Assembly: GCA_038882975.1 (NCBI GenBank)
Contig: JAVZNE010000001.1
Coordinates: 256,001 to 320,000, forward strand
Direction of reading: 5' to 3'
Length of the DNA: 64,000 bases
DNA from: Candidatus Bathyarchaeia archaeon
GTDB taxonomy: Archaea > Thermoproteota > Bathyarchaeia > Bathyarchaeales > Bathycorpusculaceae
Numbering within the stretch: the first letter of the stretch is position 1; each line of letters opens with the position of its first letter. The notes below the pieces were generated by a model. The model was given only the letters and a program-made list of their open reading frames with translations. It made no database searches and was not told where the DNA came from. Both the position numbers and the translations under genes were made by a program. Shown here piece by piece: positions 40,249-43,750 of the stretch.

Positions 40249-40671
40249 TCATTTCTCAAAAGGCTCTGGGAGAAGCTCCTTAAGCCGCTTTATCTTGAGT
40301 GTTTCAAACAGCACTCTGGCGTTTTCAACTTTTGCCATGACGATTTTAATTTCGGAGCTTTCAGCAAAGTCTGAAATATATTGGAGGCACGCCCCGCAAG
40401 GTTTTATTTCACCCTTGTTTTTGGCATCTGTCACAACGGCTATTTCCCTAATTCGCTTGTTCCCGTGTAAAATGGCATGGTTTATGGCGTTTCTTTCAGC
40501 GCAAGCGCCAAGCCCTGAAACCCAGCTTTCTACATTGCAGCCGCCATAAATCTTTCCGTCTTCAGCCAGAACTGCCGCGCCAACGCCGAAACCCCAAAGC
40601 ACGTGGGCGTTCGCTAAAGCCTTTGAGGCTTCCTTTAAAAGGGCTTGCTCCGTCTCACCAATTTTAACCAT
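40249..40671 (-). CDS. cdd: Cytidine deaminase (homotetrameric type)
   Basis: GCNVE, CAERNA, PCGAC, ELLP.PF. Confidence 0.88.
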   Translation of the reverse strand: MVKIGETEQALLKEASKALANAHVLWGFGVGAAVLAEDGKIYGGCNVESWVSGLGACAERNAINHAILHGNKRIREIAVVTDAKNKGEIKPCGACLQYISDFAESSEIKIVMAKVENARVLFETLKIKRLKELLPEPFEK

Positions 40672-40673
40672 GT

Positions 40674-42473
40674 TTAATCCTCTTCTGTTATGGCTGTGTG
40701 CCTCACATAGTAGTATTCGCCAATCTCCTTTTGATACTTGTCCAGCTTTGAGCCCTCCTTGTTGACGCGGGGTCTCTTCGTGACAGGGTCCCTTCTGAAG
40801 GTTACATTCATCTCCTTCAAGAAGGCGTTCATCCCATCCCTTAGGCTTGTTGGCGGGTTGGCTATGCCCCTTATTCCAGGCTCGCCCGTAAACACCATCA
40901 AACGGTCTGCTATGAAGTCTTGAGCTACAACGTCATGTTCAACAACGAAGGCTGTGGCATTCCTCGCCTCAATTACTCGGCGTATGGTTCTCGCCATGTT
41001 AAGCCTCTCTTCAACGTCCAAGTAGGCGCTCGGCTCATCTAAAAGATAAAGCTCAGCCTTTCTTGATAGGCATGCGGCTATGGCAACTTTCTGAAGTTCG
41101 CCGCCGCTAAGCTCGGCTATATTTCTCTCTAAGAGTGGCGTTATACCAAGTGGCTGGAGGATTTCAGCTTTATACCAGCCTGAAGTGAAGTCTTCTTTAG
41201 CTATGCTTGTTAAGAGTTCTTGCACGGTGCCCTCATATTCAGCAGAAATGTACTGTGGCTTATAGCTGACAGTCAGCTCTTTAAACTCTTTTCCATCATC
41301 TGTTTTCTCCAGACCAGCCAATATTTTAACAAATGTTGTTTTGCCTATGCCGTTTGGTCCAAGAATCCCTATAATTTCGCCCCTTTTTATTTCTCCTGGC
41401 TGTGCGACGAGTTTAAAGCCTTCATAGGTTTTCTCCACCTTATCCCATTTTAGGAGCGTCTCGCCAGCGGCGAAGCTTATGGTTGGCGGTTTTTCATGGA
41501 ATATTATGGCTTCTTTTCTGAAGCGGATGTTTTCGTCTGGGATGTAGCCTTGAAGATAAATGTTTATGCCAGTTCTGACGCCGTGCACGTGGGAGACTAT
41601 TCCGTAAACGCCAGCCTCACCGTAAAATATGCTTATTTGGTCTGAGAGATAATCGATTATTGCGAGGTCATGTTCGGCTACAACGACAATTTTTCCCTCC
41701 CCTTTTAAGCTTCTTATGGCTCTTGCAACCTCAAGCCTCTGCTTCACATCGAGGTAACTGGATGGCTCGTCGAAAAGGTAGACGTCGGCTTCTCTGCATA
41801 TCGCAGCGGCTACAGCCACCCTTTGCAGTTCGCCCCCGCTTAAGGCTTCGATTGGCCTGTCCCAAATGTTTTTCAACTCAAGCCTTTCGGCAACATCCTC
41901 AAGGATGCCTCGCTCATCCACTTTTCCAAGAAGTTCGCCAACCCTGCCAGAAACAGCCCTTGCAATCTTGTCAACATATTGGGGTTTGTGCACAACTTTT
42001 AGTTTGCCCTCGCTCATCCGCTGGAAATAGTCTTGCAGAACTGAACCCCTAAAATACCTTATTAGCTCGTTCCAGCTGGGTGGATTCTCATAATTCCCAA
42101 GGTTTGGCTTAACCTCCCCGGAAAGAATCTTCAGCGTCGTCGTCTTTCCTATACCGTTTTTGCCGAGAAGCCCCAAAACAGTGCCCGGTGACGGGGTTGG
42201 AAGTCTATAAAGCTTAAAGGTGTTTGGTCCAAATCGGTGGCTGCACTCCTTTTCCAGCTCATCTGGAAGGTTCACTATTGATATGGCGTTGAAGGGACAC
42301 TTTTTGACGCATATTCCACAACCGGAGCATAACGCCTCAACAATCAGTGGCTTGGCGTCTTCGAAGCGGATTGCCTCAACATGGCTTCTAACCATTGGGC
42401 AAAAGCGTTGGCACTGTTTTCCGCAACGCTTAGGTTTGCACTTATCAGCGTCCAGCACTGCAACGCGTGTCAT
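40674..42473 (-). CDS. rli1: Ribosome recycling ATPase ABCE1/Rli1
   Basis: N-terminal FeS cysteines, twin NBDs G.NGIGKT and LSGGELQ, TFRRD...RPRVNK. Confidence 0.97.
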   Translation of the reverse strand: MTRVAVLDADKCKPKRCGKQCQRFCPMVRSHVEAIRFEDAKPLIVEALCSGCGICVKKCPFNAISIVNLPDELEKECSHRFGPNTFKLYRLPTPSPGTVLGLLGKNGIGKTTTLKILSGEVKPNLGNYENPPSWNELIRYFRGSVLQDYFQRMSEGKLKVVHKPQYVDKIARAVSGRVGELLGKVDERGILEDVAERLELKNIWDRPIEALSGGELQRVAVAAAICREADVYLFDEPSSYLDVKQRLEVARAIRSLKGEGKIVVVAEHDLAIIDYLSDQISIFYGEAGVYGIVSHVHGVRTGINIYLQGYIPDENIRFRKEAIIFHEKPPTISFAAGETLLKWDKVEKTYEGFKLVAQPGEIKRGEIIGILGPNGIGKTTFVKILAGLEKTDDGKEFKELTVSYKPQYISAEYEGTVQELLTSIAKEDFTSGWYKAEILQPLGITPLLERNIAELSGGELQKVAIAACLSRKAELYLLDEPSAYLDVEERLNMARTIRRVIEARNATAFVVEHDVVAQDFIADRLMVFTGEPGIRGIANPPTSLRDGMNAFLKEMNVTFRRDPVTKRPRVNKEGSKLDKYQKEIGEYYYVRHTAITEED

Positions 42474-42603
42474 AGTTTACCAGCAACTATCTAGTTATGT
42501 GCTTTTACGTCATAAATATGAGCCTTAAAATCAGATTGCTAGAGTGCTAAAAACTTTTCGGGTTAGAAAGAAAACGAGGGAAACATGAAACTGTTTAGGG
42601 TTT

Positions 42604-42678
42604 TCACCATTCCTCTTCTTCCCACTCTTCTTCTTCCCAATCTTCCTCTTCCCATTCCTCTTCTTCCTCGAACACCAT
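42604..42678 (-). CDS. 24-aa acidic micropeptide MVFEEEEEWEEEDWEEEEWEEEEW
   Basis: SD GGAGGTGA 2 nt before ATG; TGA stop; GAA/GAG synonymous variation keeps the peptide pattern; TATA-like element upstream and T-rich tract downstream. Confidence 0.7.
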   Translation of the reverse strand: MVFEEEEEWEEEDWEEEEWEEEEW

Positions 42679-42796
42679 ATTCACCTCCACTAACCCAAGG
42701 GCTTGGCATACTGAGAGCCTCAAAAGAATGCTTTAAGCATTTTCATTCGACTATTGTCGAGAACCCTTCTTGATGATGAGCCTGCATTTTAAAAAT

Positions 42797-43750
42797 TTAC
42801 TTCAGAATTTTTGCCGTTAGGGCGGCTTCAGGCTCCCGCATTTCAGGCTTAAGGTAAGCCCAACACAAATGTGCGGAGTTGTGGGCTGCTCCAATTTCGC
42901 CGCGTGTGTCTACGGCGATTAAACCCATGGAATTGTAGGTTCCAGCCATCCGCTCATTAACAAGCCTTATGGCGGCTTCAACAGCCTCTTGGGCAGTTTT
43001 GCCGCCCTCCATGTAATTGCAGACGGTCTTCGCAAGGACAAGCCTTATGGCGATTTCGCCAACGCCGGTGGCGGAACAAGCCCCACTCCTATTATCGGCG
43101 TAGGTGCCACATCCAATCAAGGGCGAATCGCCAATCCTTCCGGGAATTTTTAATGGGAAGCCGCCGGTGGATGTGGCAGCAGCAACATTTCCATCTAAAT
43201 CTAAGGCAACAGCGCCAACGGTTTCCAGGTCGAAAAGCTCCGGATACCTCTTAACCAGTTCTGCAAGTTTTGGCAGCTCAAACTTGCCATCCAATAGGGC
43301 TTGCTTCGCCTGCTCATAATATTTTAAGCGGAGTTCCGTAAGCGGGTTTCGCCTTTCAAGGTTGAACAGTTTTGCGAGTTTTTCTGCTCCATCGCCAACA
43401 ATGAAGACGTGGTCTGTCTTCTCCATAACTATTCGTGCAAGCCTAACCGGATTCCTAATGTCCCGCAAGAGCCCGGCAGCCCCAGCCCTTAAAGTTTTTC
43501 CATCCATAACTGAGGCTTCCATCTCCACAGTCTTCTCTATGGTTAGGCTTGAACCATAACCAGCGTTAAAGACACCTTCATCCTCCATGACGGCTACAGC
43601 CTCAACAACGGCGTCGAGGGCGCTTCCGCCATTAGCTAAAATGTCAAAACCAGTTTTGGCAGCCTTCTTTACACCTTCAAGTCCAGGATTAATGCGCTCT
43701 GGATGCCAGTTCCCAGCGCCGCCGTGGACAACTATTACTGGTTTTGGCGT
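42797..43750 (-). CDS. Isoaspartyl peptidase/L-asparaginase (Ntn hydrolase), apparent ACG start
   Basis: The frame continues upstream of the track ATG to PKPVIVVHGGAG; FNAGYGS, nucleophile TVGAVA, GRIGDSP, TGVGE. Confidence 0.9.
   Translation of the reverse strand, partial: TPKPVIVVHGGAGNWHPERINPGLEGVKKAAKTGFDILANGGSALDAVVEAVAVMEDEGVFNAGYGSSLTIEKTVEMEASVMDGKTLRAGAAGLLRDIRNPVRLARIVMEKTDHVFIVGDGAEKLAKLFNLERRNPLTELRLKYYEQAKQALLDGKFELPKLAELVKRYPELFDLETVGAVALDLDGNVAAATSTGGFPLKIPGRIGDSPLIGCGTYADNRSGACSATGVGEIAIRLVLAKTVCNYMEGGKTAQEAVEAAIRLVNERMAGTYNSMGLIAVDTRGEIGAAHNSAHLCWAYLKPEMREPEAALTAKILK

Follow-up and report, generated by a model that had tools for sequence, protein, structure and literature searches.

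What could a peptide made almost wholly of glutamate and tryptophan be doing beside the gene for the ribosome-recycling factor ABCE1, an ATPase that is essential and universal in archaea and eukaryotes? The question is raised by a 64,000-nucleotide stretch of DNA (hereafter the window) from a Candidatus Bathyarchaeia archaeon (contig JAVZNE010000001.1, positions 256,001 to 320,000), part of a genome assembly of 1.42 Mb in 15 contigs. The minus strand of the window carries an open reading frame (ORF), here termed the micro-ORF, whose product from its ATG is the 24-residue peptide MVFEEEEEWEEEDWEEEEWEEEEW. Its coordinates (Table 1) and composition are those reported by a first-pass annotation of the same DNA: 17 of the 24 residues are acidic (16 Glu and one Asp), Trp recurs every fifth residue (positions 9, 14, 19, and 24), and GAA, GAG, and GAT codons are mixed. 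Read along the minus strand, the order is GGAGGTGA-AT-ATG-GTG-TTC, then 21 codons that are GAA, GAG, GAT, or TGG, and finally TGA. The net charge of the peptide is about −17 over 23 to 24 residues. On the evidence presented below, the micro-ORF is almost certainly a real translated gene.

Evidence for selection was sought in loci chosen without reference to the micro-ORF, by fetching the ABCE1 loci of 40 relatives and reading the 330 nucleotides (nt) 5′ of the ABCE1 start. A Shine-Dalgarno (SD) sequence, a start codon, repeats of three to five Glu or Asp residues followed by Trp, and a stop codon occur within this distance in 23 of the 29 assessable loci (L001-L008, L010, L011, L013-L022, L024, L025, and L027). 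Five loci (L023, L026, L028, L029, and L030) have no micro-ORF within the 330 nt, and L012, with a flank of 49 nt, was not judged. Among the orthologs, repeat number and length vary by whole codons alone, and the SD, the start codon, and the final Trp-stop are conserved across orders and classes. Retained positions also include a single Gly and a single Asp, an invariant terminal Trp, and an M-[VI]-F start.

A closer set of 10 same-genus genomes, likewise defined by ABCE1 and not by the peptide, shows how the sequence changes. Eleven sites of the 69-nt ORF vary in this set. One falls in the start codon, whose first base differs (ATG, GTG, or TTG), and the remaining 10, all in codons 2 to 23, are synonymous third positions, compared with a neutral expectation of 9 to 18% synonymous changes (P of about 4e-8 to 4e-11, a value that is indicative since sites on a tree are not independent). 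In the same genomes, invariant columns make up 59 of 69 in the ORF and a smaller share of its flanks (55 of 142 on the downstream side and 57 of 113 on the upstream side). Asp-rich versions from Asgard archaea are encoded with GAT and GAC, which argues that acidity is kept rather than purine content. In one Bathyarchaeia clade, a 22-residue form, MIFEEEDEWEEGEDEEWEEEEW, is unchanged whether ABCE1 lies 158 to 1449 nt away or is not nearby, and thus the peptide is conserved whatever its distance to ABCE1. These patterns indicate that purifying selection acts on the peptide. The first-pass annotation had argued for such selection as opposed to repeat slippage, and the synonymous changes, the in-frame length differences, and the retained SD, start, and Trp-stop bear this out. 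The frame-breaking indels or losses of SD and ATG that it named as signs to the contrary were looked for in orthologous loci and did not appear.

The start codon merits comment. Six loci (L005-L008, L064, and L125) have no ATG at this place, and a GTG directly before the Phe codon is their sole start after an in-frame TGA within the SD. The conserved start is therefore most likely GTG 42675, giving a product of 23 residues (MFEEEEEW...), although either ATG 42678 or GTG 42675 may be used in the window. With both starts allowed for, the peptide can be written M(V)FEEEEEWEEEDWEEEEWEEEEW, with 23 to 24 residues. A 7- to 8-nt SD match is retained in nearly all Bathyarchaeia orthologs. Two longer ORFs overlap the micro-ORF in other frames because a (GAR)n-TGG sequence is free of stop codons in every frame on both strands. 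This type of ORF was found once in the 1.42-Mb genome by a regular-expression scan of all six frames.

The micro-ORF also appears to have expression signals of its own, as the first-pass annotation had claimed on the basis of an SD, a B recognition element/TATA-like (BRE/TATA-like) sequence within a palindrome, and a downstream tract. All of these are present, although the palindrome spacer reads TAA and not TTA as originally given. The sequence GAAAATGCTTAAAG is a predicted promoter, whose core, (A/C)TTTAAA or GCTTAAAG, lies at a constant distance in the orthologs; the AATGCT and AGCATT arms of the overlapping palindrome are not always retained. A second palindrome, TCGAC-AATA-GTCGA, lies directly 5′ of the TATA element and is better conserved. 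In Bathyarchaeia, the promoter-like region consists of a palindrome (TCGACA-NN-TGTCGA, ACGACA-NN-TGACGA, or TACGTCA-TT-TGACGTA), a spacer of 5 to 10 nt, and (A/C)TTTAAA. The expression CGAC..GNCG matches 38 of the 83 listed micro-ORFs with all taxa pooled, and related arms that it misses (ACGTCA-NN-TGACG) are visible by eye in more Bathyarchaeia loci. These include L039, L076, and L077, in which promoter and operator are retained at copies that do not adjoin ABCE1.

The form TCGAC-N4-GTCGA is unique in the genome, and it is the sole relaxed match that adjoins a TATA-like element. A regulon search of the genome for this operator returned no site besides the promoter of the micro-gene itself. 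Because the palindrome is unique in the genome and its relatives are kept before the micro-gene across Bathyarchaeia, a dedicated regulator is suggested, and we regard the sequence as the candidate operator of such a transcription factor.

Downstream, the T-tract TTTTCTTTCT is likely to be the archaeal oligo-T terminator of the micro-gene, and T-rich tracts follow the micro-ORF in all family-level orthologs. ABCE1 has an upstream segment of its own (CGAAAAGTTTTTAGCAC ... CATATTTATGA ...), and family-level relatives repeatedly show a TTTATAA or TTTATGA element some 45 nt 5′ of the ABCE1 ATG. The two units come apart in genome G002 (locus L009), where a gene on the opposite strand has been inserted precisely at the junction of the T-tract and the ABCE1 upstream segment. 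The micro-gene there lies 896 nt from ABCE1, with operator, TATA element, SD, ORF, and T-tract all retained. The insert itself is about 770 nt long, and its opposite-strand reading frame is seen in two parts, of 134 and 92 codons.

No unusual fold was found for the 248-nt RNA reaching from the putative start site to ABCE1 (minimum free energy −56.4 kcal/mol compared with a shuffle mean of −56.8, z = 0.09), and nine ABCE1-upstream regions gave no match in Rfam at the gathering threshold. RNA data came from about 5% of the run of one hot-spring metatranscriptome (X5). Here 32 reads mapped to the region 40600-43700, all with first mates on the plus strand, as is expected for minus-strand RNA in common stranded libraries. 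Read depth is about 1 over 42472-42679, 0 over 42680-42783, and 0 to 3.7 over neighboring genes. Only seven of the 32 reads are at least 99% identical, which indicates that relatives contribute reads. The metatranscriptome thus lends thin support to transcription and gives nothing firm on transcript ends. As judged from the operator, TATA element, and T-tract, the micro-gene is its own transcription unit in this genome; the promoter-like region is conserved in relatives, and the G002 arrangement separates the units physically. The other idea in the first-pass annotation, that of an upstream ORF serving ABCE1, is not supported for this genome, given the T-tract, the roughly 95 nt belonging to ABCE1, the G002 insertion, and the ordinary fold.

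Table 1. Coordinates of the micro-gene, its neighbors in the window, and features in other loci (prefixed by locus number)
Feature	Position	Strand	Remarks
Micro-ORF	42604..42678	minus	ATG 42678-42676 (or conserved GTG 42675) to TGA 42606-42604; sequence read directly
Shine-Dalgarno GGAGGTGA	42688-42681	minus	perfect; 2 nt before ATG, 5 nt before GTG
BRE/TATA-like GAAAATGCTTAAAG	42744-42731	minus	predicted promoter; overlaps palindrome AATGCT-TAA-AGCATT; element as a whole 42727..42744
Palindrome AATGCT-TAA-AGCATT	42741-42727	minus	read from sequence
Palindrome TCGAC-AATA-GTCGA	42760-42747	minus	directly 5′ of TATA element; candidate operator
T-tract TTTTCTTTCT	42574-42565	minus	about 30 nt past stop codon; candidate oligo-T terminator
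ABCE1 upstream segment	42474..42560	minus	about 95 nt; stays with ABCE1 in L009
ABCE1	40674..42473	minus	599 residues; N-terminal twin 4Fe-4S domain and two ABC ATPase domains
Gene 5′ of micro-gene	42797-43588		putative asparaginase-type hydrolase, by eye
Overlapping ORF	42563..42709	minus	other frame
Overlapping ORF	42585..42773	plus	other frame
Micro-ORF	L065:2459-2545		
AdoMet decarboxylase	L065:2689-3054		
Micro-ORF	L096:2456-2545		
AdoMet decarboxylase	L096:2643-3020		
LysW-family zinc ribbon	L114:142-345	plus	
RPB9/RpoM-type zinc-ribbon ORF	L032:2678-2989	plus	
RPB9/RpoM-type zinc-ribbon ORF	L151:1171-1473	plus	
GCCGTCACCAC(A/T)CATCATCC motif	L084:2402-2456	plus	

The window's peptide belongs to what is apparently a large, undescribed archaeal family of 20- to 60-residue peptides, defined by an M-[VIL]-F start, runs of three to eight Glu or Asp residues, single Trp residues between them, and an invariant C-terminal Trp. 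A species-level scan with one genome per prokaryotic species, using the pattern W-[DE]2-x0-6-[DE]-W-[DE]2-x0-6-[DE]-W-stop, yielded at least 120 loci (L031-L150), with record titles known for L031-L110 only. Among the matches listed, ORFs of 20 to 60 codons with this Glu/Trp make-up occur in Bathyarchaeia/Bathyarchaeota, Acidianus, Aramenus, Desulfurococcales, Hyperthermus, Thermogladius, Thermoproteales/Thermoproteus, Thermofilaceae, Nitrososphaerota metagenome-assembled genomes (MAGs), Nanopusillus, and Micrarchaeota. The list further includes Asp-rich versions in Thorarchaeota, and Thermococcus/Thermococcaceae versions in which a Lys-rich head, MQPPKKKK, precedes the acidic-Trp repeats. Bacterial matches among those listed (Billgrantia, Lachnospiraceae, and others) are mostly C-termini of long proteins and are taken to be unrelated.

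Archaeal genomes were also searched with a strict and shorter DNA pattern, with the reversed pattern as a control. Forward matches were obtained in 27 of 41 relatives, 163 of 401 genomes of the window's phylum, 34 of 151 in an Asgard sample, and 71 of 121 in the phylum of a Thermococcaceae genome. Across the three phyla sampled this amounts to 268 of 673 genomes, whereas the reversed pattern gave none in any of the four samples (0 of 714 genome searches). Because this ORF type occurs once in the window's genome and the reversed pattern matched none of the sampled genomes, the matches are more than chance, although counts across relatives are not independent. Within the window's phylum, the distribution by family is nearly all-or-none. 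Many matches were found in families f30 (23/23), f25 (16/17), f22 (15/16), f36 (12/15), and f1 (22/25), and few or none in f21 (0/56), f34 (0/24), f29 (0/17), f31 (0/12), and f27 (1/32). The strict pattern undercounts, missing L019, L021, and L025 as well as the f27 genome L151, which has Phe at one Trp position. Two or three copies are present in G434, G597, G633, G618, and G620 of the Thermococcus phylum and in G040, G053, and G074 of the window's phylum, and the copies in G597 and G633 lie in differing contexts. Sequences this short and biased do not allow proof of common descent among the Glu-rich forms of Thermoproteota, the Asp-rich forms of Asgard archaea, and the Lys-headed forms of Thermococcales.

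Database searches agree with the apparent novelty of the family. The window's peptide and five relatives matched no family in Pfam-A, including DSS1, at E ≤ 10 with hmmscan, short low-complexity queries being hard for HMMER. An exact look-up of 10 family members in a collection of 15 billion proteins found none of them, although other start choices would be missed. Homology searches with members of 45 and 53 residues gave no match at cutoffs of E ≤ 0.001 and E ≤ 0.1, probably because the scoring fails on low-complexity sequences. One 35-residue member is present letter for letter in the ESM Atlas, where the best matches score 0.80, the chance level. A full-text literature search, with most subscription journals outside its coverage, found no paper on an acidic-Trp micropeptide family. 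The ribosomal protein eL41, just as short but very basic, was considered as a pairing partner of the peptide; a genome search for it (PF05162) returned 9 of 401 genomes and detected it in just 1 of 14 control genomes, a sensitivity too low for co-occurrence to be read from it.

The proposed tie to ABCE1 (rli1) reaches far beyond the genus. ABCE1 orthologs were found in 41 of 41 genomes, and their alignment retains the Cys ligands, Walker motifs, and LSGGE motifs. Beyond the 23 of 29 relatives described above, flanks were available for 80 listed scan loci (L031-L110), of which 68 contain a small acidic-Trp ORF after filtering; the 12 left out are L033, L035, L043, L054, L055, L068, L072, L082, L090, L098, L101, and L104, the last of which adjoins ABCE1. 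Among these listed matches, ABCE1 follows on the same strand in 43 of 68, with a gap of 4 to 258 nt in 34 and of 365 to 1449 nt in nine; it is divergent in L080, and four loci have too little flank. The linked loci listed span Sulfolobales, Desulfurococcales, and Thermoproteales and include Acidianus and Aramenus (gaps of 48 to 50 nt), six of Desulfurococcales type (161 to 258 nt), the Thermoproteales MAG L073, and many Bathyarchaeia. All five f36 genomes searched have M(V)FEEDWEE...W located 45 to 55 nt upstream of ABCE1, and their peptides agree with those of the named Acidianus and Aramenus loci. In L073, the TTG start of ABCE1 comes a mere 7 nt past the micro-ORF stop, and the Trp-stop sequence TGGTGA itself reads as an SD. 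Four of six Sulfolobaceae-type loci have GGTGA, GGAGGT, AGGTG, or GGTG before ABCE1, which fits an internal cistron. The linkage of the micro-gene to ABCE1 is very old and persists across class-level divergence.

ABCE1 is not the only translation-related neighbor. In Thermococcales, the micro-ORF lies directly 5′ of the NIP7/UPF0113 gene in nine genomes as judged by coordinates. In six of six loci fetched (L162 and L164-L168) the two overlap by 11 nt, such that the NIP7 ATG falls within the D/E-E-W-stop codons (G-ATG-AGT-GGT-GA). Genes for DHH/DHHA1 and pterin-binding DUF4346 proteins precede the pair in these six loci. Both Nanopusillus loci have DUF424, NMD3, the micro-ORF, and aIF1A in this order on one strand. 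Placement in or overlapping operons of recycling, biogenesis, and initiation factors is thus repeated in three separate lineages. Other Thermococcales copies lie before MoeA, beside a major facilitator superfamily (MFS) transporter or PHO4, or among unknown genes, and Asgard copies are isolated or convergent with genes for purine/methylthioadenosine-type nucleoside phosphorylase, acetyl-CoA synthetase, or GNAT proteins. Five Thorarchaeota-type loci have the micro-ORF convergent with a PNP_UDP_1 nucleoside phosphorylase, and in two Thermoproteus-type loci (L065 and L096) it lies about 100 to 145 nt upstream of an S-adenosylmethionine (AdoMet) decarboxylase gene on the same strand. Both are enzymes of polyamine metabolism, although their presence at the micro-ORF may be coincidence. 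In L058 and L060 the micro-ORF is near CDC48, and the unlinked copy in L039 is near a NUBPL/ParA-type P-loop NTPase.

What, then, does the peptide do? We tentatively favor the possibility, still short of probable, that it acts in trans on the ABCE1/ribosome system. Isolated, convergent, or ABCE1-distant copies cannot act in cis, and therefore a diffusible product is indicated. The free peptide, polyanionic and anchored by its Trp residues, would dock on the translation apparatus, its likeliest target being ABCE1 itself or a ribosomal or factor surface used by ABCE1. The hydrophobic start, the single Trp residues within acidic runs, and the terminal Trp with its free carboxylate would suit a short docking peptide that inserts its aromatic side chains into the pockets of a basic surface. 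If it competed with acidic-hydrophobic tails such as the C-terminus of aP1 and the N-terminus of eIF3j, or took their place, the peptide might tune the ATPase activity of ABCE1 or the time that ABCE1 stays on the small subunit once the ribosome has been split. Where the gap is 7 to 50 nt and an internal SD is present at ABCE1, the pair is probably co-transcribed, and both products would be made together.

Two known acidic-hydrophobic ligands of ABCE1 would be comparable. One report (PMC6125642) describes how the acidic C-terminal 18-mer of the ribosomal protein aP1 (aP-C18) binds a cavity of nucleotide-binding domain 1 (NBD1) of archaeal ABCE1 via L103, L106, and F107, and how this tail is needed for ribosome-dependent activation of the ABCE1 ATPase; the tail is also a ligand of translational GTPases. 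As a documented archaeal ABCE1 ligand that is short, strongly acidic, and hydrophobic or aromatic at its end, the aP1 tail resembles the micropeptide. However, it is part of a ribosomal protein, whereas the micropeptide is free-standing, has repeated Trp residues, and ends in Trp; in alignment, neither the C-terminal L..LF cluster nor the P1 dimerization domain of aP1 is found in it.

The second is eIF3j, a factor for which we know of no comparable archaeal accessory protein. Its N-terminal part contacts ABCE1 near the NBD1/NBD2 cleft at a position similar to that of the aP1 tail (PMC7780240), and an acidic motif in it docks by means of a single Trp, set among acidic residues, into a hydrophobic pocket whose rim is basic (PMC2824034), the set mutated in yeast eIF3j/Hcr1 being W37, D38, and E40-43. 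At the level of this motif the micropeptide is alike, with four Trp residues each flanked by three to five acidic residues. In contrast, eIF3j is a dimeric helical-bundle eukaryotic protein of about 260 residues, and the pocket known for it belongs to eIF3b, a protein absent from archaea. The micropeptide, at 23 to 24 residues in all (20 to 60 in relatives), has neither the helical-bundle body nor the basic C-terminal tail and corresponds to the acidic-Trp part alone, in repeated form.

Sem1/DSS1, named in the first-pass annotation, offers an analogy only: it is a small, disordered, acidic docking subunit with conserved Trp residues whose partners are the proteasome lid and BRCA2. The micropeptide is likewise small, acidic, and Trp-bearing, but DSS1, at about three times the length, lacks a regular repeat, and none of the genomic contexts here points to a DSS1 partner. 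The micropeptide lacks at least one defining feature of each known system considered, namely DSS1, eIF3j, the aP1 tail, and the Lto1-type signals and leader peptides discussed below. We class it as a free-standing form of acidic-aromatic docking peptide.

Several observations weigh against an action on ABCE1. Among the matches listed, 20 of 68 have no ABCE1 within about 1.9 to 2.5 kb, among them every Thorarchaeota, Thermococcus, Thermoproteus, and Thermofilaceae locus as well as some Bathyarchaeia. The Asgard contexts and most of those in Thermococcales are non-translational (purine nucleoside phosphorylase, MoeA, MFS transporter, and PHO4), and thus the partner need not be ABCE1. In four of five genomes checked from families without a strict-pattern match, one each of f21, f29, f31, and f34, ABCE1 has no acidic ORF within 420 nt upstream, and therefore ABCE1 does not need the peptide. 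Synteny shared by relatives does not count as independent evidence, and convergence, as opposed to homology, could explain the Asp-rich and Lys-headed subfamilies. The aP1 tail binds as a helix through Leu and Phe and not Trp, such that its likeness to the micropeptide is one of type and not of sequence. A prediction of the ABCE1-peptide complex scored 0.00, a value with no weight either way on binding, the peptide being shorter than the calibration range of the tool.

A bolder version of the trans-acting proposal, which we consider rather unlikely, is that the archaeal machinery for ribosome recycling and subunit maturation has a near-universal small cofactor, missing until now, and that the peptide is this cofactor. 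Such a cofactor would be a free-standing ancestor or analog of the acidic-Trp docking motifs on eIF3j and similar eukaryotic factors. It would bind ABCE1, and perhaps NIP7- or NMD3-stage particles, and control the timing of ATP hydrolysis or of small-subunit departure. If this were true, its occurrence in Asgard archaea would be relevant to the way in which acidic-Trp motifs came to be part of eukaryotic initiation and recycling factors.

The foremost competitor, doubtful but deserving serious attention, holds that the peptide is a general polyanion with no tie to ABCE1. It could chaperone or neutralize very basic partners such as ribosomal or chromatin proteins, mimic nucleic acid, or buffer polyamines and divalent cations, and the ABCE1 neighborhood would then reflect inherited synteny and co-expression with the translation apparatus. 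The charge of about −17 suits such a role, as do the 20 ABCE1-free loci among the 68 listed and the occurrence of the family, with varied neighbors, in Asgard genomes (34/151) and in the Thermococcus phylum (71/121). Polyamine enzymes adjoin the micro-ORF in some of these, with AdoMet decarboxylase in two loci and nucleoside phosphorylase in five. However, bulk charge does not account for the conservation of exact residues (the Gly, the Asp, the terminal Trp, and the M-[VI]-F start), which therefore favors a defined binding site, nor for the three separate lineages with the micro-ORF in or overlapping operons of ribosome factors.

It is also conceivable, though improbable, that translation of the ORF acts in cis as a leader that sets the expression of ABCE1 or NIP7. 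This could proceed by termination-reinitiation coupling, or by an acidic N-terminal run that destabilizes the ribosome, reporting ribosome stability or recycling capacity. MgtL is an acid-rich leader peptide that acts through intrinsic ribosome destabilization, an effect of acidic runs of which we know no demonstration in archaea. For bacteria and eukaryotes, such destabilization by N-terminal Asp/Glu runs is reported (PMC12673854; PMC9718836; PMC11162784), which speaks for a leader. With the leader peptides of the first of these reports, the micro-ORF shares its very short length, its acidic start, and its place upstream of a translation or ion-homeostasis gene.

A leader is more plausible in L073, in Sulfolobaceae, and at the NIP7 overlap than in the window. 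The 7-nt distance from the stop to the TTG of ABCE1 in L073 and the 45- to 55-nt gaps in Sulfolobaceae-type loci, four of six with SD-like sequences before ABCE1, are compatible with one transcript, and NIP7 is overlapped by 11 nt in six of six loci examined. In this genus, by contrast, a putative terminator and a putative promoter lie between the genes, and the T-tract, the ABCE1 upstream segment, and the G002 insertion mark separable units. Nor were alternative RNA structures or an attenuator-like fold found (z = 0.09). Unlike known leaders, the micro-ORF is a separate transcription unit conserved residue by residue, including a 22-residue form unchanged at 158 to 1449 nt from ABCE1 in one Bathyarchaeia clade, and convergent or isolated Asgard copies cannot act in cis.

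A third alternative, which we consider very unlikely, is that the peptide is an iron-sulfur (Fe-S) delivery tag, its terminal Trp working like the C-terminal Trp signal of Lto1 for Rli1/ABCE1. Archaea, to our knowledge, lack the Cia1/Met18 targeting complex. A C-terminal Trp in Lto1, or more generally [LIM]-[DES]-[WF]-COO-, is reported to serve as the signal for Fe-S insertion into Rli1/ABCE1 (PMC4523923, PMC10245660). The neighbor ABCE1 is an Fe-S protein, every family member aligned ends in [DE]-W-COOH, matching the last two residues of a cytosolic Fe-S assembly (CIA) targeting signal tied to ABCE1, and the unlinked L039 copy lies near a NUBPL/ParA-type NTPase. However, Glu or Asp, and not Leu, Ile, or Met, stands third from the end in the window's peptide and in every relative aligned; the peptide has no adaptor domain able to hold ABCE1; the receptor complex is eukaryotic; and NIP7, NMD3, and aIF1A are not Fe-S proteins.

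It is comparably improbable that the peptide is the split-off acidic tail of a LysW-type zinc-ribbon carrier or a substrate of an ATP-grasp ligase. This idea draws on a LysW-family zinc ribbon with a Glu/Trp-rich tail ending in Trp in L114, the only such protein among the loci examined, and on RPB9-type zinc-ribbon ORFs that adjoin the micro-ORF in L032 and L151. The terminal residue of LysW carriers is Glu, the side chain of which serves for attachment, whereas that of the acidic-Trp family is Trp. The window's peptide has no Cys and no zinc-ribbon globular domain, and no zinc-ribbon or ATP-grasp gene adjoins its micro-gene or most other loci. Finally, a chance ORF in a neutral purine-rich microsatellite or non-coding RNA element, suggested by a (GAR)n-TGG composition open in all six frames, can be dismissed given the 10 of 10 synonymous variable sites, the conservation of SD, start, and stop across orders and classes, the Asp-rich versions that break the purine run, the reversed-pattern result of 0 of 714, and the lack of any special fold.

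The gene is too short for routine gene callers, is under strong purifying selection, and stays beside ABCE1. Its carriers include named Acidianus and Thermococcus genomes, from groups with cultivable, genetically tractable relatives. Even with another partner, the archaeal small proteome would gain an unusual member, a peptide of 20 to 60 residues whose net charge is near −17.

Three further features were observed in the course of this work. The LysW-family protein of L114 (PF21344, E = 6.8e-15) has the C-terminal tail FEEEEEEWEEEWEEGEEEEEW, which is micropeptide-like in make-up and ends in Trp. In L032 and L151, both from distant Thermoproteota, a 100- to 103-residue ORF between the micro-ORF and ABCE1 encodes an RPB9/RpoM-type zinc ribbon (PF02150, E = 3e-8 to 5e-8) with an acidic tail.

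Lastly, a conserved motif, GCCGTCACCAC(A/T)CATCATCC, occurs in six Desulfurococcales-type loci, where it is flanked by the micro-ORF and ABCE1, and also upstream of ABCE1 in three relatives with no micro-ORF there (besides L084, the loci are L026, L028, L029, L059, L081, L100, L105, and L110). Its opposite strand carries a C box (AUGAUGA), a conserved guide, and a D box (CUGA) at the end. Full-length matches below threshold were obtained to four families of archaeal C/D-box small RNAs, the best being sR12 (18.7 bits compared with a gathering threshold of 38, E = 0.049). The motif is probably an unannotated guide for rRNA methylation.

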